This document shows positions 25,498 through 39,225 of a stretch of 64,000 bases of DNA, one piece after another; position 1 is the first letter of the stretch; every line of letters starts with the position of its first letter. Made by a program: the position numbers and the translations under genes. A model generated the notes under the pieces. That model had not been told where the DNA came from and did not search any database. It was given only the letters and a program-made list of their open reading frames with translations. Source of the DNA: a virus; UHGV virus genome UHGV-1351772, one strand, 5' to 3'.

Positions 25498-26397
25498 TTA
25501 TTTCCCACGATAAAATCCAGAAATGTAACTCGGCGCTATCCATCGCCATTCGCGCCAGCGCATTTCTGACATCTTACCACACCATACACGCTTCCAATGC
25601 GCACGACGGATATGTGCGGCGCAATAAATCGCCAAACAAACCTCGTGTCCTTCCTTGCGTTGCTGTTCTATATCTTCCCATTGTACCGGACTTACATCTA
25701 AAACGACTGCTTCACTACGTGGGCGAATCTCTGTATCGGGAACATAACGAATGGTCCTTCCGCGAAATTCTTTCTTCTCACGTTCAGTACGTTTAATTCG
25801 TGACGAAAGGTATAGTCCGATATAGACAGCGTCGAGTAGTCGTTGATTCTCCTTAACCGAAATAAGGAGCGGCTTTAGCTCGACGAAATCATCTTTACTT
25901 TTATCGATTTTGTAAATCTCAAACTCCATGTATACCGATTCTTCACGTTCTTCGCATGACATCACAAAGAGAACTTCTTCGCCTTCGTAAAGACGTCTTC
26001 CGATAAATAACGTGATTGGACTTTCGTCGAGATTTACAGTAACCGAGAAAGTAAATGAAGGGATGGTTTCTATCCAGAAGTACGGGATGTTTTTTAGTCT
26101 CTCAGTTTTTGCTAAGAGTGCCATCAGTTCTTCATCCGAGATGATTTCAACAGCAGCGTATTGCCATCCTAGTCCCAGGGACTGCTTAATCAGTCTGGGA
26201 ATCTGTTCGGTAACGCCATACTCTCGATAGGTCGGATCTTTAACTGGCATAAACGTTACGGGTATTTGACGTTTATGCTCGTTAATGAACCGAATAAAGC
26301 GGCACTGATCTAATCCGTGAATTGTTTGGTGTGCCTTTTCTATTTGTTCGCTCATGCGTCTTAGCGCTTTCCCGTAAAGTCTATTATTCGTTGTCAT
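25498..26397 (-). CDS. Hypothetical protein, paralog A of a basic Trp-rich C-terminus family
   Basis: Start moved to ATG 26397 (AGGAG SD; MTTNNRLYG...). C-terminus AAHIRRAHWKRVWCGKMSEMRWREWRWIAPSYISGF matches paralog B. Confidence 0.6.
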   Translation of the reverse strand: MTTNNRLYGKALRRMSEQIEKAHQTIHGLDQCRFIRFINEHKRQIPVTFMPVKDPTYREYGVTEQIPRLIKQSLGLGWQYAAVEIISDEELMALLAKTERLKNIPYFWIETIPSFTFSVTVNLDESPITLFIGRRLYEGEEVLFVMSCEEREESVYMEFEIYKIDKSKDDFVELKPLLISVKENQRLLDAVYIGLYLSSRIKRTEREKKEFRGRTIRYVPDTEIRPRSEAVVLDVSPVQWEDIEQQRKEGHEVCLAIYCAAHIRRAHWKRVWCGKMSEMRWREWRWIAPSYISGFYRGK

Positions 26398-26422
26398 TTT
26401 AATACTCCTAAACACTTTTAGC

Positions 26423-27349
26423 TTAATTGTGGGGTACGTAGCCACGGACAAATGTAGGTGGAATCCAACAAAGTTTTCTCTTTCTTTCACCATTTCTAGG
26501 GCCGACCCAATATCTGCGCCAGTGAGCGCGACGGATGTGGGCAGCCTTAGCATGTTTGATACCCTGCATGGTTTTCAAGTCAGTGTTAAACCCTTTTAGA
26601 TAATTCACTTGTCCTGGCGTGATATCTATCTTAACATCGCGTTCACGAGGTTTAACGTCGTAGCTAATACTACCGTTCTTTTTGATTTCTTTGAACTTAA
26701 TATCATTAAAAGACTCCCTGTAATTGGGCGGGATTAGCGTACACAGAAATATCATCGAAGTAGCGGCTTTGGCCAGAGATAACCATAGCATCTTTTCTTG
26801 TTCGTTCTCCACACCGTCGGCATAGTCGATTTCCACAAGCCCGTTTCCTGCGCTACGAAGCTCTAACGAACAAGTGGCAATTGTGGTAACGCCTTCTGTT
26901 AACCCGTAATCAGTATTTGTAGCAATTATAATAAACCTTCTCTTCCCGTTTTTTCGATAGCCGAGAAAGAAAGTCTCATCCTCTTTACCTACGTCGATTG
27001 CTACAGTCCAAGTAGGTATAAAGTCCAACCATTCTTCAGGGAATTTACTGGGCATCTCAGTCTCGAAAACAAGTTCTCTAAGTGCTTGGTTGGATATTAA
27101 GGAAGCACCACCGTATAGCCATCCAATTGCCAATGTTTGAGCGTGAAGGGAACGGGGATCTTTGAGACCTAACTCAGCGTCGTAAGGTATAAAGGCATTG
27201 GTTAAATGGTTACGATTCTTTTTTATCCATTTCGAGACAGGATTTTCCTTTATTCGGTTTTCTTCCATGACATTTTCAAGATGCTGAGACCCCATTTGTC
27301 TAAGGCAGTCTTTAATACCTTTTACTTTTTTACTTTTGTACAAATACAT
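26423..27349 (-). CDS. Hypothetical protein, paralog B of a basic Trp-rich C-terminus family
   Basis: ATG 27349 with AGGAG SD; C-terminus AAHIRRAHWRRYWVGPRNGERKRKLCWIPPTFVRGY; internal similarity to paralog A. Confidence 0.6.
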   Translation of the reverse strand: MYLYKSKKVKGIKDCLRQMGSQHLENVMEENRIKENPVSKWIKKNRNHLTNAFIPYDAELGLKDPRSLHAQTLAIGWLYGGASLISNQALRELVFETEMPSKFPEEWLDFIPTWTVAIDVGKEDETFFLGYRKNGKRRFIIIATNTDYGLTEGVTTIATCSLELRSAGNGLVEIDYADGVENEQEKMLWLSLAKAATSMIFLCTLIPPNYRESFNDIKFKEIKKNGSISYDVKPRERDVKIDITPGQVNYLKGFNTDLKTMQGIKHAKAAHIRRAHWRRYWVGPRNGERKRKLCWIPPTFVRGYVPHN

Positions 27350-27365
27350 GGTTTATTCTCCTAAA

Positions 27366-27402
27366 ATGGTTAAAAATAAAGTAACCCTAGCCGAAGCTAG
27401 GG
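27366..27402 (-). terminator. Rho-independent terminator (minus strand)
   Basis: CCCTAGC-CGAA-GCTAGGG hairpin with U-run on minus strand. Confidence 0.55.
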
Positions 27403-27408
27403 TGTCTA

Positions 27409-27894
27409 TTAATCGATTTGGACGTAGTTCGGATAATTGGCTTTTAACCACTCCCACAACTGATATGCAAGTTGACTTTGATCGGCACTGATAAGAGCTA
27501 CTATTTCAAGATAAACGCTTTCATTACTCCAAATCTGGCTATAAAAGCGTCGCCATTCAGGAGCAGTGTAGGGTACTATTACGTCAGGCATGTACCCGTT
27601 GTGCCAGCCATTAACTATCGAACGTAGGGTTTCGATACGGATGTCGTAAAACCGACGTCTGATAGAAGTCCATGTAATAGGCCCTGGCTGATCGAAGAAA
27701 TTGTCCAGATTCATTAGTAATGTCGCACGATATCTCGCAACGATAACGCCAGCTGCCTGTGAAGCTATCCAAACAGCGTCCACTGTTTTTGGAGCTAACA
27801 AGTTACGTATCGACTGTTCCATGCGATCGCAGTGGTTCAGAAACTCATGGACAATGTCGCTATTAGAGAGATTGATAATTGCATTTACGTTCAT
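27409..27894 (-). CDS. Hypothetical protein, 161 aa
   Basis: ORF in array. Confidence 0.55.
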   Translation of the reverse strand: MNVNAIINLSNSDIVHEFLNHCDRMEQSIRNLLAPKTVDAVWIASQAAGVIVARYRATLLMNLDNFFDQPGPITWTSIRRRFYDIRIETLRSIVNGWHNGYMPDVIVPYTAPEWRRFYSQIWSNESVYLEIVALISADQSQLAYQLWEWLKANYPNYVQID

Positions 27895-32702: not shown

Positions 32703-32750
32703 AACGTTAAAAAGAAAGACCCTCCTGTACCACGAAAGGGTACAGGAGGG
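32703..32750 (-). terminator. Rho-independent terminator (minus strand)
   Basis: CCCTCCTGTACC-loop-GGTACAGGAGGG hairpin followed on minus strand by UCUUUCUUUUU. Confidence 0.65.
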
Positions 32751-32754
32751 GGTG

Positions 32755-33210
32755 TCAGTACAAACACGATGTCAAGTATTGGTTGTACGAATCGAGTAGT
32801 GTCTGACGGTCGGAGCGGTAATTCCACAACAAATTATTGAGTTTACGCGATAGGTCACGGCTAATCTCCTGGGGCGTTAAAGAGCTTTCGTCAAGAGATA
32901 AGCGTTCAGGTACAACATGTAACTTCGGTAACTCATAACGCTCACAAAGTGGAGCCAGCATTGGTGGGCTCCAGCCACGTTTAACGGCTTGTTGGTTTAA
33001 ATTTCGGGTGTAGACATAAACGTAGTAAGCATAGGTGTTGACATCCGCAACATACTCACGCATTGCGTTATTGTCAATTTTCCAATTCACCATTATTGGT
33101 GGTGTAGGAGGAAGTTCCAGTGGCCTATAAGCTGGACGTTTAACTTCGTCGCCGTAGCTATTACTCACCAACCCCACGAACACCATCATGATGAATAACA
33201 GCATTTTCAT
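32755..33210 (-). CDS. Secreted proline-rich protein (signal peptide, no lipobox)
   Basis: Start at ATG 33210 (AAGGAG SD): MKMLLFIMMVFVGLVSNSYG then PAYRPLELPPTPP. Confidence 0.6.
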   Translation of the reverse strand: MKMLLFIMMVFVGLVSNSYGDEVKRPAYRPLELPPTPPIMVNWKIDNNAMREYVADVNTYAYYVYVYTRNLNQQAVKRGWSPPMLAPLCERYELPKLHVVPERLSLDESSLTPQEISRDLSRKLNNLLWNYRSDRQTLLDSYNQYLTSCLY

Positions 33211-33213
33211 CAA

Positions 33214-33717
33214 TCACTCCTTAGAAGACGTTAACGTCTTTATGATCTCCTGTCGAAAACTGTTCGCATTTAAATTGCCAACAGGTCTCGCCGAAGCCTC
33301 TTTACGTTGTTCTGGTGTTGAAGCTGGATTAACAGGAGTTTCTGGTTTTGTCGAAGACAGATCCTTCGCCGTACCGCTCGCTTTCGATGAATTAAACGTG
33401 CTTTCATATGGCGGTTTCTGGCCGAGGCAAACGAAGAGCCTGTCGTATAACTTCCCATTATCTTCTTTTAGTTTATCTCGATCTTGTTTCATCTCTTGGT
33501 AAGACTGCGACATATACGTGTCATGAGACTGCACTGCAACGAGCGCGTGAAACTGTTGTACATAGGCGTAGGAGACGAAGCCAGAATACGACAACAAGAT
33601 CGTGATGATTAAAGTCATTATCTTGCTTGCTCTTGATACGTTTTCTCCTTCTCCTGGTTTAAATGCTTCCATTAACATCTGAAGGAAGAACGGAAGCACT
33701 TTAAAAAATGAACCCAT
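33214..33717 (-). CDS. Membrane protein with N-terminal TM helix and periplasmic coiled-coil-like domain (i-spanin-like architecture)
   Basis: 167 aa; TM IMTLIITILLSYSGFVSYAYV; then QEMKQDRDKLKEDNGKLYDRL; GAGGTGA SD. Confidence 0.55.
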   Translation of the reverse strand: MGSFFKVLPFFLQMLMEAFKPGEGENVSRASKIMTLIITILLSYSGFVSYAYVQQFHALVAVQSHDTYMSQSYQEMKQDRDKLKEDNGKLYDRLFVCLGQKPPYESTFNSSKASGTAKDLSSTKPETPVNPASTPEQRKEASARPVGNLNANSFRQEIIKTLTSSKE

Positions 33718-33742
33718 TGCTCACCTCGGAGTATTTTTAATT

Positions 33743-35116
33743 ATGTTAGACTTACAAGGTTTTATTCAGATACCGGCACTGTTTGACAATCAGGACGGCG
33801 TCACCGCTCCGGTGGGCGAGCTGTCGGATTTGACACTCTCGTACGCGAAGAGTAAACAGACGTTTACTAAAACCAATTTGCAAGTTCAATTGGTGACTTT
33901 TACGTCTAAACGAGAAAAACAGACGGTTGTTGTACCAGCCGAATTTTCTGATCATATTCTAACCGTTTCTCAATGGATTTACCAGCAAGCCATCTTGGGG
34001 AATCTGAGAAATGACGAACTCGAATTCCAGCGCCTGTTATTAGGCCAATTCCAATCAACCATTTCTGGTGTTCAGTCTGGTGCGATGATACAGACGAACA
34101 GTAACTGGTTCCCACGTTGGGTGAGCTGGAAATATGAAGTAACGGCAGATCAAGTACAAGATGACACTGATGTAGATAATCAGATCATTGTTTGGTTCTC
34201 GGATGAAGACTTCGATCAAGATTACACAGGGTTCGAAATCGAAGTACAGATGCCGATTTCGCCAATCGACACATTTTTGTCGACCAAGTCAGTCGTTGAA
34301 AAGGCGATGGAAGGGTTTAACCTTACCGAACACCATAAGAAAATCAATGAGTTAATGGCAGGGTTTCCTTATACCGCCATCCAAACCAACTACTATACTT
34401 GGCACGATCAAGAAAACTACGAGTCTACCCTAGTTGTCCCAATGTCGGTTATTATCTACGGACGTGCGGGAAAAAACCCAACGAAAATAAAGCAAGCGTT
34501 GCGAGAACATATTCTCGCTAATTCTAGCTTTACTGTCCCTATCGGGGTAAAAGTATTTCCCGAAATTTTCACTACCACGAAATTTACAATTGTCCCTGGA
34601 TGGAAAATTCGTGGGATACCCAATGAGGAAGATGTGGCGGCGCTTTATTCCCCCATCCTTCCATATGATTTCTGGGTCAAAGCTATCAGTCGGTTTGGAG
34701 AATGGGCAGACCAGACGGTAGCAGAAAGAAATACTAAAACGATCAGTAAACCTACAACAGACGTAACTGACTTACCAACAGTTTATAAATCATTAAACTG
34801 TGTTGTAATCAGTGGGCCGGAAAACGATACACGGAAAGCGACCTTACACGAAACTATCCCGGATTATGCGTTAATTGCGACGACTAACCCTGATATTGCG
34901 CGTATGTCGAAAACAACGACCGAATGGTTGGCGTTATTCTTCCAGGCACTTATTGCTGCGGAAGAATACCACCCGTATCAAACCAGCTTAGATGTTGTAA
35001 AACTGGTCGATGAGGCTGACCCTGATAACTACTTCTGGGTGTTTGAATACGACAACGTAGAATATCGTATCCTGTCTCGGAAAGCGAAATGGTACACCGA
35101 GTTAGACGAGGAGTAA
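33743..35116 (+). CDS. Hypothetical protein, 457 aa
   Basis: Plus-strand ORF starting 25 nt from divergent minus gene; no recognised motif. Confidence 0.6.
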   Translation: MLDLQGFIQIPALFDNQDGVTAPVGELSDLTLSYAKSKQTFTKTNLQVQLVTFTSKREKQTVVVPAEFSDHILTVSQWIYQQAILGNLRNDELEFQRLLLGQFQSTISGVQSGAMIQTNSNWFPRWVSWKYEVTADQVQDDTDVDNQIIVWFSDEDFDQDYTGFEIEVQMPISPIDTFLSTKSVVEKAMEGFNLTEHHKKINELMAGFPYTAIQTNYYTWHDQENYESTLVVPMSVIIYGRAGKNPTKIKQALREHILANSSFTVPIGVKVFPEIFTTTKFTIVPGWKIRGIPNEEDVAALYSPILPYDFWVKAISRFGEWADQTVAERNTKTISKPTTDVTDLPTVYKSLNCVVISGPENDTRKATLHETIPDYALIATTNPDIARMSKTTTEWLALFFQALIAAEEYHPYQTSLDVVKLVDEADPDNYFWVFEYDNVEYRILSRKAKWYTELDEE

Positions 35117-35783: not shown

Positions 35784-36335
35784 TTAAATGTCAACTTCTA
35801 GTTTACGGTAATCGATGACGCCTTGAGCAATCATAGCAGCAACATCGTTCCAGGTACGAAAAATGAAGTAAACTGTGTCTCCGTTTAAAAAGATGTTAGA
35901 TTCTTTATCCGGAAAATCGTCTTCGCTGAGGTAGTAGTAGGGTTTGTCGAAAGGGAAGTCGCGCTCATCAGAGGAACCAAGTACCGCATAACGATTGCCA
36001 CAATCAAAAAGAATCTTCCAACCAGACATTTCACTATTAGCGTCAATACGATCGTCGATTTCAACGGTAATAGGAGAACGATCAAGAAAGCTGATTGTAA
36101 CCTCCCCGTTATGCTGTCGTTTAAATCGACGAATATCCGTAGGCACAATTTCAGATGCTGCTATAAGGGAATAAAGTTGTGTTACGGTGATCTTTTTGTA
36201 AACACTATCGCCATCCCACAAACGATCAAATAAGAAATTAGCCAGGAAATTTATATCCTTTAAACGTGAACGGAAAACAGAACCACGACGAATACCGTAA
36301 GCCAGATGAGTTAAATATTCAGACGATGGAAACAT
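35784..36335 (-). CDS. Hypothetical protein, 183 aa (paralog of 36397-37329)
   Basis: MFPSSEYLTHLAYGIRRG vs MTFPSEVIYELANTLRRR; LNGDTVYFIFRTW vs LNGGVVYFILSNW; AGGAG SD. Confidence 0.6.
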   Translation of the reverse strand: MFPSSEYLTHLAYGIRRGSVFRSRLKDINFLANFLFDRLWDGDSVYKKITVTQLYSLIAASEIVPTDIRRFKRQHNGEVTISFLDRSPITVEIDDRIDANSEMSGWKILFDCGNRYAVLGSSDERDFPFDKPYYYLSEDDFPDKESNIFLNGDTVYFIFRTWNDVAAMIAQGVIDYRKLEVDI

Positions 36336-36396: not shown

Positions 36397-37329
36397 TTAC
36401 TTTTTGGTTTGACCCAGGTTTTCAAGAACCAGTTCACGAATGTACTTCTGAGTACGTTTCTTCGGCGGTAAAGCCATAAGGGTGTCAACGATTCCCTGCC
36501 CACCGATAACCTTGCTGACGAGTTGTTGAACTTGGAAGAGTTCTGCTTCTTCGTCACTGATTTCATTAGCTTGGTCTTTCTGACACAATGCTTCTACCAG
36601 GTCAGCTACGGATATTTCATTTTCGTCACCAGGGAAATCCAGGTTTAACGATTCGAAAACATCACGCTTAACGAGCACAGATTTCAGATCATCGTAGTTT
36701 TCACAAACGGCGACTTCTGTGCCAGGTACCGTTTCTTCTTCGTCTTGATCTTCATTCTCAGCGGAGAGGTAACTTACTTCTGTTGCGTGGAATGTTGCGT
36801 CAGCTTTTCTCAGGACGTAGCTCACATGCGACCAATTGCTCAGGATGAAGTAGACAACACCCCCATTTAATCCGATATTGCCCTGGCGAAGTTCGAGAGC
36901 AATTTCCAGGCGGCGTGAAATCTGCCCCAAGTCAAAGAAAGACTCGTCGCGTGCCGCAACAACTTCGTACTGATTCACCCCTTGTTCTACAACAACGAAC
37001 CAGTTATCCGGGAGAGGATACGGGTTGCGCATGAAAGAAAGTTCGTTCCCTACGCCTGGGTCAACAGTAACGGATGTATGGCGCATTCCCATGGAGAAGT
37101 TGAACGTATCCCCATTTAGAACCGCAATTGCACCGTCAATCGGAAGAATTTTGGTGGTACGATCAATAGAGAAAATCTCTTTCTGCGTAATTGAAGGCTG
37201 ATTACTGCCTAGGAAGTGATTACGCAGAAAAGCAGCGGTTGGGCCTACGCTGGCTTGCAGTATATGGTGGTTATAACGACGACGCAGTGTGTTAGCCAGT
37301 TCGTAAATTACTTCTGATGGAAAAGTCAT
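36397..37329 (-). CDS. Hypothetical protein, 310 aa (paralog of 35784-36335), acidic C-terminal tail
   Basis: See paralog evidence; ATG 37329. Confidence 0.6.
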   Translation of the reverse strand: MTFPSEVIYELANTLRRRYNHHILQASVGPTAAFLRNHFLGSNQPSITQKEIFSIDRTTKILPIDGAIAVLNGDTFNFSMGMRHTSVTVDPGVGNELSFMRNPYPLPDNWFVVVEQGVNQYEVVAARDESFFDLGQISRRLEIALELRQGNIGLNGGVVYFILSNWSHVSYVLRKADATFHATEVSYLSAENEDQDEEETVPGTEVAVCENYDDLKSVLVKRDVFESLNLDFPGDENEISVADLVEALCQKDQANEISDEEAELFQVQQLVSKVIGGQGIVDTLMALPPKKRTQKYIRELVLENLGQTKK

Positions 37330-37382: not shown

Positions 37383-37862
37383 TTAAAATAATGGCAAGTT
37401 ACGCCATTGTCCTACCGAGTAAAAAGCTTTTGGATGTTTACGGATATACGCTTTCGCTTCTTCTGGCAACCAACGGTCACCTACCAGTTTTTGTTGTGCA
37501 ACAATTACTGCCATCAACAAATAAGGGTTTTTCGCACCGGGAAACTTTGCATTGGTTTCTAGCGCAATATCCAACATTGACGACCAGCCCAGTAATTTAT
37601 GCTGCGCCGGTAAACGTTCTTCAATATACATCAGCCAGTTCATGATTTGTTTAGGTTTATACGGACAGGTATAATTCGCCCAACACACCATGACGAACTT
37701 AATAGCCTTCGCAATCACCCATACAGGGACAGTCACGAAAAGGCAGAAAATAGCCAACTGCGATGCGGGCGCTTCGACAAAAGTAATCGCCACAAGGACC
37801 ATAAACAATTCAAGTACCACAAACCAAAAACGCGTTGGATAACGCCAAATGAACTTTATCAT
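37383..37862 (-). CDS. Integral membrane protein, 159 aa
   Basis: Multiple hydrophobic helices (FWFVVLELFMVLVAITFV, LAIFCLFVTVPVWVIAKAIKFVMVCWA); AGGAG SD. Confidence 0.6.
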   Translation of the reverse strand: MIKFIWRYPTRFWFVVLELFMVLVAITFVEAPASQLAIFCLFVTVPVWVIAKAIKFVMVCWANYTCPYKPKQIMNWLMYIEERLPAQHKLLGWSSMLDIALETNAKFPGAKNPYLLMAVIVAQQKLVGDRWLPEEAKAYIRKHPKAFYSVGQWRNLPLF

Positions 37863-37930: not shown

Positions 37931-38438
37931 AGAAGAACGGCTGATTTGGAATGACAGCGTACTCTAAAATGAACATGTGTTCTGGGGCGTCTTCTTTACG
38001 CCAGACCTTGTGTGTCGACACAAGTTTTTCCAGAATCGTTAGAAAACTACGCTGGCAGTATGTGTTTTCACCAAGCAGTAGATTTTGAAGTTCTACAGTA
38101 GCGTCCATATACGCCTGTTTAAAGACTAAATTACGGTTATACTGCCCGGTAAAATTCCAAAGCAAGACTTTCCCTTCTTCGGTTTCTTTTACCGTTGGTC
38201 GTAAACCACAAATCCACAGTAAGGCAAGGTTGACGTTCCAGTCAAACTCTAAACCTTCTTCTTCGTCATCACCGAATGCTGTGGGTAAAGCATCGTAAAA
38301 TTCGTGTTTCTCTGCGAATTCTTCATCCGACTTAATCTCGTCTTCGATACTGCTTCGGACGATACTGTAAACGTCTTTCGCGGTCAATTGTGCGGCTTTT
38401 GTAATGCCTTTATACCAATCGGTTACTACGATGCTCAA
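37929..38438 (-). CDS. Hypothetical acidic protein, 169 aa (TTG start)
   Basis: TTG 38438 with GAGGAG SD; TTGA overlap with upstream stop; no ATG until aa ~122. Confidence 0.5.
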   Translation of the reverse strand: MSIVVTDWYKGITKAAQLTAKDVYSIVRSSIEDEIKSDEEFAEKHEFYDALPTAFGDDEEEGLEFDWNVNLALLWICGLRPTVKETEEGKVLLWNFTGQYNRNLVFKQAYMDATVELQNLLLGENTYCQRSFLTILEKLVSTHKVWRKEDAPEHMFILEYAVIPNQPFF

Positions 38439-39133
38439 AGGGTAACTCCTCTATTGATTGGAAAACTCGTGTTTATCGTATCCCAAATTCTACTAACTTC
38501 CGCCAGTTGAATCTGACGTGGTGTTTTCTTCGCAAACGCAAGCTGACGTGGGGCCGAGCCCACAACAACAGGCACATCGATTTTCGCGCTATAGAACGCG
38601 GCGTCTTTCATAAAGCCTGCCATTTCTCGTTGTGCTGCTCGAGATTTGCTTTTGATTCGCGTGTGAGCGCCACTTTCACCCCAGTGGTAAGCTAACGCAA
38701 TTTCAGCCATGGTGGGCTTGCGTTTGAGTCGTTTGGTTAACCCCTTCTCAAGATGTTTAACATACGCGGCAGCCAGCAAAACAGCATTACGCGGATTATA
38801 TAAATCGGCGTTCTGACTAAGACCTAATTCTTTTCCATAAAGCCTTAGCAGATTACGCTTGGTACTTGGAAGCATCTGTACCAGGCTGTGTGCTCGTGAG
38901 CTTTTGTTGTAAGCCTTGGGATCAAAACGTGATTCGCGATAAATCAGCGTAATCATCAGCTTAGGATCAACGCCTTGCTTTCGTGAGATTTCCACAATTA
39001 ACGGGCTGACTTTTTCGAACCGATGTTGGATTTGTGCAAACTCACGCTGATGCTTAGAATGTGGCGTTGACGTTGACGCCTGTGCGTTAAACGCGAAAAG
39101 TGTTACCAGTAAAAGAAAGAAGATACGAAACAT
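38435..39133 (-). CDS. Secreted lytic transglycosylase (signal peptide plus SLT domain)
   Basis: Start moved to ATG 39133 (GGAG SD): MFRIFFLLLVTLFAFNAQA signal peptide; ESRFDPKAYNKSSRAHSLVQMLPST ... YNPRNAVLLAAAYVKHL. Confidence 0.6.
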   Translation of the reverse strand: MFRIFFLLLVTLFAFNAQASTSTPHSKHQREFAQIQHRFEKVSPLIVEISRKQGVDPKLMITLIYRESRFDPKAYNKSSRAHSLVQMLPSTKRNLLRLYGKELGLSQNADLYNPRNAVLLAAAYVKHLEKGLTKRLKRKPTMAEIALAYHWGESGAHTRIKSKSRAAQREMAGFMKDAAFYSAKIDVPVVVGSAPRQLAFAKKTPRQIQLAEVSRIWDTINTSFPINRGVTL

Positions 39134-39225
39134 TTTGTTTCTCCAGTTGGATTTATACATTTCCGTATTCCGTAAGACGAAATGACGGCGCGGACAGCTA
39201 ATACTCCTTTGTTGTGTGCCCTAAT

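Follow-up and report, generated by a model that had tools for sequence, protein, structure and literature searches.

The window analyzed here is a 64,000-nucleotide (nt) stretch of a virus genome (UHGV virus genome UHGV-1351772). Its minus strand carries two adjacent genes, here named A and B, whose products resemble the inner-membrane subunit (i-spanin) and the outer subunit (o-spanin) of a two-component spanin. In this phage and its genus, protein B lacks the lipidated cysteine found in its orthologues and presents a predicted type I signal peptide, and the gene is maintained by purifying selection. We put at about one half the probability that A and B form a periplasmic complex of spanin descent which has an untethered outer subunit and still serves envelope disruption; its role in lysis is that of a candidate only. 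The features of the pair are as follows.

33214..33717, minus strand: gene A, i-spanin-like protein of 167 amino acids (aa) (open reading frame (ORF) and translation, phrog_8719, CR5_183 orthologue)
33559..33621, minus strand: codons 33–53 of A, sole predicted transmembrane helix, N-in/C-out (Kyte–Doolittle scan, AlphaFold2)
32755..33210, minus strand: gene B, Sec-exported helical-hairpin protein of 151 aa (ORF, phrog_8165, alignments)
33151..33210, minus strand: codons 1–20 of B, type I signal peptide MKMLLFIMMVFVGLVSNSYG with predicted cut before Asp21 (sequence)
33169..33171, minus strand: codon 14 of B, TTG (Leu), at the position of the lipoylated Cys of sister lineages (sequence, alignments, homologue N-termini)
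33217..33222, minus strand: Shine–Dalgarno sequence AAGGAG of B, within the final codons of A (sequence)
32710..32750, minus strand: intrinsic-terminator-like hairpin with T-run, end of the A–B unit (sequence)

Family Assignment and Relatives

Searches with A and B against Pfam, NCBIfam and PADLOC gave no match, and in PHROGs only phrog_8719 (A) and phrog_8165 (B), both of unknown function, were retrieved. Alignments reveal clear homologues in Cronobacter phage CR5, where the spanin census of the Young laboratory (Kongari et al. 2018, PMC6139136) lists, as its best candidates in this phage, CR5_183 as a "separated i-spanin" and CR5_184 as a "separated o-spanin". On bioinformatic grounds only, the family thus already figures in a catalogue as a candidate two-component spanin. 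A and B are also orthologous to and syntenic with SPN3US gp204/gp205 and Asesino gp223/gp224, from the SPN3US-like jumbo phages, which form a nucleus. A preliminary description of this locus, made from the sequence alone, had proposed an atypical spanin-like pair and possibly a non-canonical lysis system. The orthology to the CR5 candidates, together with the lipoprotein character of B in sister lineages, upholds that proposal and makes "atypical o-spanin" a fitting description of B. Neither protein has the layout of a unimolecular spanin, with an N-terminal lipobox and a C-terminal membrane helix.

At the protein level, A and B match about 60 jumbo phages of Salmonella, Erwinia, Escherichia, Cronobacter and Proteus (25–60% identity), and by its sequence the window is part of a jumbo phage related to Salmonella phage SPN3US. 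A megablast search of the deposited phage collection found no record near-identical to the window. Hundreds of isolate assemblies from Salmonella, Shigella and E. coli contain contigs of 220–229 kb with identical or near-identical copies of A and B, and such copies are also carried by circular "plasmids", both complete, of E. coli 98232 (NZ_CP173450.1, 221,873 bp) and of Enterobacter ludwigii; the window maps to NZ_CP173450.1 179109..221873..20378. The phage fits the proposed genus "Bapsvirus" (Chimalliviridae), which has been described from bacterial assemblies only and is thought to persist in a carrier-like manner (PMC12768965).

Loss of the Lipobox in the Genus

The B signals of the named relatives read MKLFLAAILVLLLTG↓C in SPN3US gp205, MKAMLLVGVLLLVG↓C in Asesino gp224 and MPWVIWFLVIMLTG↓C in CR5_184 (arrows mark predicted cleavage sites). 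A lipobox is also present in nine of nine IMG/VR loci from other lineages (L008–L016) and in L020, a member of a more remote subfamily. In a search of 5.8 billion proteins, every full-length homologue cluster outside the genus (22/22) has a Cys at about position 15 behind [GAS]. An exhaustive HMMER search of 1.84 billion representatives returned 48 clusters, including lipobox variants such as LQG↓C and a few truncated gene calls; all full-length members carry a lipoprotein signal except those of the window's genus and one further homologue, P0155. The lipobox is kept in relatives down to about 25% identity.

Within the genus, the lipobox is missing from B of the window, of two loci 95% identical to it (L004, L005), of a 77%-identical subclade (L006, L007, P0002, NZ_CP173450.1) and of a third subclade (L018/L019, P0084). 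The same holds for 28 of the 28 listed members of the two 90% clusters of the genus, and judging by these sequences the loss is fixed in all members of the genus seen. The N-terminal consensus is …[FCM][VMA]G-L-VSN[SG]YG↓[DE]…, in which the motif VSN[SG]YG↓[DE] is kept in all three subclades while the hydrophobic core varies. Where the sister lineages read …LVG↓C…, the window reads …FVG-L…, with a TTG Leu codon exactly at the lipoylated Cys, a change that needs two base substitutions; a signal peptidase I site (SYG↓D/E) lies six residues downstream of the lost Cys position. With Leu14 in place of Cys, B is an o-spanin orthologue, yet not an o-spanin by definition. In a neighbor-joining tree built from the mature region of B only, the lipobox-less sequences form one clade nested among lipobox-bearing ones, which argues for a derived loss, a single event on the stem of the genus.

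The remaining lipobox-less homologue, P0155, is distant from the others and is found on a single metagenomic contig, ERR13731090_171177 (L035, 5597–6393). It starts with MRYLIFLLAFSASA↓VDLNYE, a type I signal without Cys, and retains both conserved Cys residues. The gene ahead of it encodes a 133-aa A-like protein that combines a membrane helix with a strong heptad-repeat/coiled-coil region.

Selection and Search for a Substitute Anchor

Ratios of nonsynonymous to synonymous substitution rates (dN/dS, Nei–Gojobori) within the genus are 0.06–0.15 for B and 0.09–0.14 for A, with 0.26 for the nearly identical L006–L007 pair. Between subclades, the proportion of nonsynonymous differences in B is 0.13 versus a saturated synonymous proportion of 0.80. 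The conserved core of B is intact in the genus (YVADVNxYAYYVY, GWxPPxxAPLCE and the C-terminal helix SPQEISRDLSR…NYRxDR…C). Low dN/dS and intact core motifs together indicate that B has been maintained by selection after loss of the anchor. A sequencing or annotation error behind the missing Cys, or a degenerating B, is in our estimate extremely improbable: nothing beyond the rarity of the lipobox-less state speaks for it, and the same state recurs in the window, in five loci, in the complete E. coli replicon and in 28 distinct proteins on hundreds of contigs. The double base change from Cys to Leu, the lack of another start or frame with a lipobox and a dN/dS well below 1 effectively exclude error and decay.

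Two complete genomes were surveyed for a substitute for the tether of B. Three lipoprotein genes occur in SPN3US; they encode gp205, a 163-aa protein neighbored by a GH108 lysozyme and an M15 peptidase, and a 133-aa member of a secreted-protein cluster. Only gp205 lies behind a type II membrane protein, and none of the three has a C-terminal membrane helix. The whole NZ_CP173450.1 genome holds only two lipoprotein candidates, neither of which adjoins an inner-membrane partner. The 159-aa lipoprotein beside the GH108 and M15 hydrolases was rejected as a substitute anchor because SPN3US has a counterpart too. The second candidate is a 47-aa membrane protein with a fortuitous VLGC; its SPN3US homologue lacks that Cys. 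This conserved single-pass protein (NZ_CP173450.1 90722–90865, minus strand; SPN3US 65485–65628) ends in …CIDNGNSVAxCTGRG, and in the E. coli replicon VLG↓C lies within its membrane helix.

No unimolecular spanin ORF was found in the window, SPN3US or NZ_CP173450.1, and no other pair of inner-membrane protein and lipoprotein in the complete SPN3US and NZ_CP173450.1 genomes. The genus thus has neither a canonical two-component nor a unimolecular spanin, and A/B is its sole spanin-like pair.

Protein B and Its Signal Peptide

The N-terminus of B, MKMLLFIMMVFVGLVSNSYG↓DEV, combines a short Lys-bearing n-region, a 12-residue hydrophobic core (LLFIMMVFVGLV) and a polar c-region in which Ser occupies −3 and Gly −1, the tail reading …VGLVSNSYG↓DEV. 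By its sequence, this is a textbook signal of the signal peptidase I type. The first Cys of B is residue 89, and the o-spanin lipobox [LVI][ASTVI][GAS]C without Asp at +2 is absent. A regular-expression and hydrophobicity scan detects no lipoprotein signal in B, nor a credible one in any plausible ORF of the 64 kb window, and it recovers the SPN3US homologue as a positive control. The preliminary description of B as a secreted protein with a cleavable signal peptide and no Cys lipobox therefore agrees with the sequence; its characterization as proline-rich is true only to a moderate degree, since prolines make up 12 of the 131 mature residues (9.2%), clustered in RPAYRPLELPPTPP.

Two hidden sources of a lipobox were considered and rejected. 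No other start or frame of B gives one, and Cys11 of one subclade stands in the context M-I-L-C, with Leu at −1, and is missing from the other subclades.

Cleavage of B is called from the −3/−1 rule alone, so the hydrophobic segment might in principle stay uncleaved as a signal anchor, placing both A and B in the inner membrane. We think there is little chance of this. The core of about 12 residues is too short for a stable membrane span, and the polar c-region SN[SG]YG, the small residues at −3/−1 and the acidic residue at +1 are kept in all subclades even though the core varies.

In an AlphaFold2 model of B (24 sequences, mean predicted local distance difference test score (pLDDT) 80.6), two long helices (residues 47–77 and 113–148) form a hairpin with a long connecting loop, preceded by an extended proline-containing segment. 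Cys89 and Cys149 are invariant in the family. Together with C97 of A, they provide the periplasmic cysteines, potentially disulfide-linked, that are near-universal in two-component spanins (about 96% of pairs in the census, PMC6139136). A "disruptin"-like function of B was considered and rejected: mature B is near-neutral in charge and of unremarkable composition, with no cationic amphipathic character.

Protein A

Protein A has a single hydrophobic segment at about residues 33–53 (Kyte–Doolittle scan), and the positive charges on its N-terminal side predict an N-in/C-out topology by the positive-inside rule. In the AlphaFold2 model (22 homologues), an N-terminal amphipathic helix (residues 2–18) is followed by an unbroken helix (29–97) comprising the membrane span and about 44 periplasmic residues, a disordered Pro/Ser/Thr linker (98–134) and short helices near the C-terminus (135–142 and 151–164). 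Hydrophobicity, charge and model agree that A is a type II protein with a single membrane helix, as expected of an i-spanin, and its periplasmic part is of the i-spanin kind as well, mainly helical or coiled coil with a flexible linker. The N-terminal transmembrane helix of the preliminary description was recovered by the scan and the model, and its periplasmic coiled-coil segment appears in the model as a long helix. For the orthologue CR5_183, the census predicts a coiled coil at residues 66–99 (PMC6139136).

Cys97, at the end of the periplasmic helix, is nearly invariant in the family, and the motif VSYAYVxQxH flanking the membrane helix is invariant across it. The C-terminal motif RPVG…N.FRQEI is still intact in the window's genus.

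Organization of the Gene Pair

Both ORFs are present on the minus strand at the coordinates given above. A starts with ATG at 33717, preceded by the ribosome-binding site GAGGTG. The listed start of B is TTG 33213; ATG 33210, 7 nt past AAGGAG (33222–33217), is likelier and yields a 151-aa protein equal in length to its close database relatives. The A stop codon TGA (33214–33216) is followed by TTG and then by the B ATG, leaving 3 nt between stop and ATG. The hairpin 3′ of B (32750–32720 with its T-run) has a GC-rich stem of 12 base pairs (8 of them GC), a 7-nt loop and a following T-run. With so short a gap and this hairpin and T-run behind B, the pair looks like a single transcription unit. 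B lies directly behind A without overlap and shares a terminator with it, which is the "separated" spanin gene architecture.

A and B share a reading frame and are split only by TGA and TTG (33208–33216, minus strand), so that stop read-through would yield an A–B fusion protein. SPN3US, Asesino, CR5 and NZ_CP173450.1 have the same arrangement, which L020 lacks; it is probably an inherited coincidence.

Gene Neighborhood

Two neighboring genes could be relevant to lysis.

38435..39160, minus strand: SLT-domain lytic transglycosylase with N-terminal signal peptide (Pfam SLT, phrog_4067, synteny)
37383..37862, minus strand: 159-aa protein with two N-terminal membrane helices, possible holin (ORF, hydrophobicity; phrog_20030, function unknown)

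The secreted SLT transglycosylase noted in the preliminary description is indeed present, 4.7 kb from A. The suggestion of a dispersed system needs qualifying, as the cluster is less scattered than it seems, with a block order conserved in distant relatives. The window, SPN3US and Asesino share the order macro-domain protein, SLT, two to four small genes, two opposite-strand virion genes, A, B, 3′–5′ exoribonuclease and RNase H-like nuclease. Its core (SLT, two inverted virion genes, A, B, exoribonuclease) is kept in distant metagenomic relatives. The P0155 contig has SLT, DUF7194 and a 440-aa virion gene (inverted), A, B and exoribonuclease, and two further remote lineages share the block, with SLT visible in one and the contig ending before that position in the other. 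This recurrence indicates that the association of the pair with SLT is ancestral. The SLT-to-A distance is about 2–2.5 kb in some relatives and about 2.6 kb in L020, and the wider spacing in the window is attributable to extra genes inserted between.

The SLT signal peptide is strongly hydrophobic and apparently cleavable (…FAFNAQA↓STS), not a weak signal-anchor-release domain, so its export would be independent of a holin. A cytoplasmic GH108 lysozyme is encoded as well in SPN3US and NZ_CP173450.1, where genes for an M15 peptidase and a 159–163-aa lipoprotein adjoin it outside the region covered by the window; either this lysozyme or SLT may be the true endolysin.

The 159-aa two-helix protein is encoded two genes downstream of SLT, a position held in SPN3US by the 86-aa two-helix gp200, to which its sequence is not similar. 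It might act as a class II holin.

Another explanation of the pair is that A is a class III-type holin (as T4 gpT) and B a periplasmic antiholin (as T4 RI), the two timing lysis or lysis inhibition. The topology of A with its conserved cytoplasmic N-terminus of about 30 residues would suit such roles, as would the predicted soluble periplasmic state of B in the window's genus and the carrier-state lifestyle; phiKZ, moreover, employs a regulated holin of class III-like type and possibly exhibits lysis inhibition (PMC12894885). However, the periplasmic part of A is a coiled-coil stalk with a disordered linker rather than a globular domain, and B is a lipoprotein in nearly all lineages, where a residue other than Asp at +2 implies outer-membrane sorting and misfits an inner-membrane antiholin. 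The usual place of a holin, beside the SLT gene, is moreover taken by the separate small two-helix membrane protein described above. A and B show no sequence similarity to curated holin families. With these features, the pair does not belong to the class III holin/antiholin type, and we regard this explanation as improbable.

Several observations on the surrounding sequence and its relatives were made in passing. Comparison of the window with its 95% relative L004 reveals local mosaicism: the synonymous rate (dS) of B is 0.42, about five times that of adjacent A (0.077), nucleotide identity is 89% over B (32815–33114) and 99% across A into the beginning of the gene that follows (33415–34014), and a deeper dip to 66–75% occurs at 36713–37309. 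Between the SLT cluster and the inverted virion genes lie genes for a 310-aa (36397–37329, minus strand) and a 183-aa protein (35784–36335, minus strand) that show weak paralogy to each other (30% identity across 77 residues, E = 2e-7); a single 377-aa gene takes this place in SPN3US. In L018/L019, a gene matching PF26125 (AcrVA2-like) is located in the conserved block about 6 kb downstream of B, beyond the nucleases, corresponding to about 26000–27500 in window coordinates. In the deposited Salmonella phages SPFM7, 8, 10, 12, 14 and 20, the A/B homologues (P0026–P0029, P0072–P0076) resemble shuffled normal segments, which suggests local assembly or annotation faults in those records.

Proposed Mode of Action and Its Weighing

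We propose the following mechanism. Protein A is predicted to be anchored in the inner membrane with its N-terminus inside, its helical stalk of about 44 residues, flexible linker and C-terminal helix reaching into the periplasm, and B to leave the cytoplasm through the Sec pathway. In sister lineages, signal peptidase II would process B and a lipid would be attached at about Cys15, which, without Asp at +2, would give an outer-membrane tether. In the window's genus, where Leu replaces this Cys, the signal peptidase I site would take over and release B as a predicted soluble periplasmic protein. B may still bind the C-terminal end of A, as both proteins keep their conserved cores and C-terminal helices. 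Such a complex would then act on the envelope at the last lysis step, anchored in the inner membrane only. Contact with the outer membrane may be non-covalent, for example via the proline segment RxLExPP conserved near the N-terminus of B, or with a further outer-membrane component as intermediary, and disruption of this membrane would probably be weaker or more conditional than with a lipid-anchored o-spanin. The separated genes, the coiled coil, the periplasmic Cys, the proline motif near the B N-terminus and the nearby murein hydrolase gene are all consistent with the spanin paradigm.

A number of points weigh against this reading. All four substitutions of the lipidated Cys in lambda Rz1 (C20S, C20R, C20F and C20Y) are lysis-defective (PMC5295617, Table 3), which makes canonical membrane fusion hard to reconcile with an untethered B. 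In phiKZ, a related nucleus-forming jumbo phage, the spanins gp141/gp141.1 have been experimentally verified (PMC12894885). Their homology to A/B was considered and rejected, as an hhalign comparison shows similarity of the signal peptides only, and with a different gene neighborhood there is no positional orthology either. The census marked CR5_183 and CR5_184 as unusually long ("too long?") and added "too long N-terminus?" for the i-spanin (PMC6139136). The strongly conserved cytoplasmic N-terminal helix of A, about 30 residues long, is unusual for an i-spanin, and structure comparison matched the B fold to no solved structure or known fold. The signal peptidase I cut is itself a prediction from the sequence, and the independent second lipobox loss in P0155 suggests that the anchor may be dispensable for the role of the family. 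Our literature search found no experiment on the A/B family in any phage, nor on SPN3US gp204/gp205.

Several of these points also favor an alternative in which none of these phages uses the family as a spanin and A/B is an envelope module of another role, for which a tether is helpful but non-essential, such as superinfection exclusion, periplasmic sensing for lysis timing or wall remodeling around infection. The spanin role has been assigned by bioinformatics only, to proteins far longer than typical spanins and with a highly conserved N-terminal helix in A. The lipobox was lost twice, with strong purifying selection afterwards, which would be unexpected if the anchor were essential as in Rz1. 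The phages seem to persist in a carrier-like manner in host colonies, the SLT signal is cleavable, unlike that of a holin-dependent endolysin, and the GH108 lysozyme is encoded elsewhere in SPN3US and the genus genome. Nevertheless, the sister lineages match the definition of a two-component spanin point by point, with a lipobox conserved over great sequence distances. A/B is the sole such pair in two complete genomes, which without it would have no recognizable spanin, and neither protein matches a defense or exclusion family. We therefore rate this alternative as rather unlikely, though it deserves serious attention.

Returning to the spanin-derived complex, a stronger version of it would make A/B the first two-component spanin in which the outer subunit functions untethered by lipid, with soluble B docking on A and contacting the outer membrane non-covalently. 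We advance this version only tentatively and would not bet on it. If true, the lipoyl tether, deemed indispensable since Rz1, would be replaceable. In the literature we found no spanin-type outer subunit reported to carry a type I signal; since the lipobox is what defines an o-spanin in the census, a lipobox-less one could not have surfaced there. In a variant of this idea, losing the tether would serve to weaken the final step of lysis or to make it conditional, which could aid carrier-like persistence in isolates of Salmonella, Shigella and E. coli.

The lipobox of the outer subunit is the feature that defines spanins and by which they are recognized in searches and annotation, and here it has been lost genus-wide, with purifying selection on B afterwards. 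Either complexes of this kind can do without the tether, or the family serves some purpose other than membrane fusion; both outcomes would alter the reading of the approximately 13% of phages considered "spanin-less" and the annotation of jumbo-phage lysis genes. SPN3US gp204/gp205 (with Cys) and the pair from the window (without Cys) constitute a clean natural experiment. As the genus is known only from isolate assemblies in which lytic jumbo phages seem to persist, its lysis machinery is relevant to the question of persistence.

Comparison with Known Systems

The T4 holin T and antiholin RI resemble A/B in consisting of a single-pass N-in protein with a short conserved cytoplasmic N-terminus and a secreted periplasmic partner. 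They differ in the globular periplasmic domain of T, the signal-anchor-release domain of RI, a partner that is never a lipoprotein and the lack of sequence similarity.

Like A/B, lambda Rz/Rz1 comprises a type II inner-membrane protein (helix, linker, helix) and an exported partner with a proline stretch and periplasmic Cys; the complex forms via the C-termini. Unlike B, Rz1 is encoded by a gene embedded in Rz, has a 40-aa mature form and strictly needs lipoylated Cys20.

The phiKZ spanins gp141/gp141.1 come from the same phage family, have similar sizes (168 aa and 120 aa) and are encoded close to an SLT-type transglycosylase. Apart from the different neighborhood, they are distinguished from A/B by overlapping genes and by the lipobox LNG↓C of gp141.1.

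The closest counterparts are CR5_183/184, SPN3US gp204/gp205 and Asesino gp223/gp224, which are like A/B in gene block, domain layout and conserved cysteines (25–60% identity). Shared motifs are VSYAYVxQxH, PPYE and RPVG..FRQEI in A and YVxxVNxYAYYV and APLCE in B. The difference lies at the start of B, where these phages have a lipoprotein signal (MLTG↓C, LLTG↓C and LLVG↓C) and the window has Leu with a signal peptidase I site.

T4 PseT.3/PseT.2 share with A/B the adjacent, non-overlapping genes and an i-spanin with one N-terminal membrane helix and a coiled coil; PseT.2 also resembles B in its helical content, two periplasmic Cys and a sequence not dominated by proline. There is no sequence similarity, and PseT.2 is an 83-aa lipoprotein, whereas B is a 151-aa helical hairpin and a non-lipoprotein. 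By homology, the pair groups with CR5_183/184, and in architecture it is closest to the separated T4 PseT.3/PseT.2.

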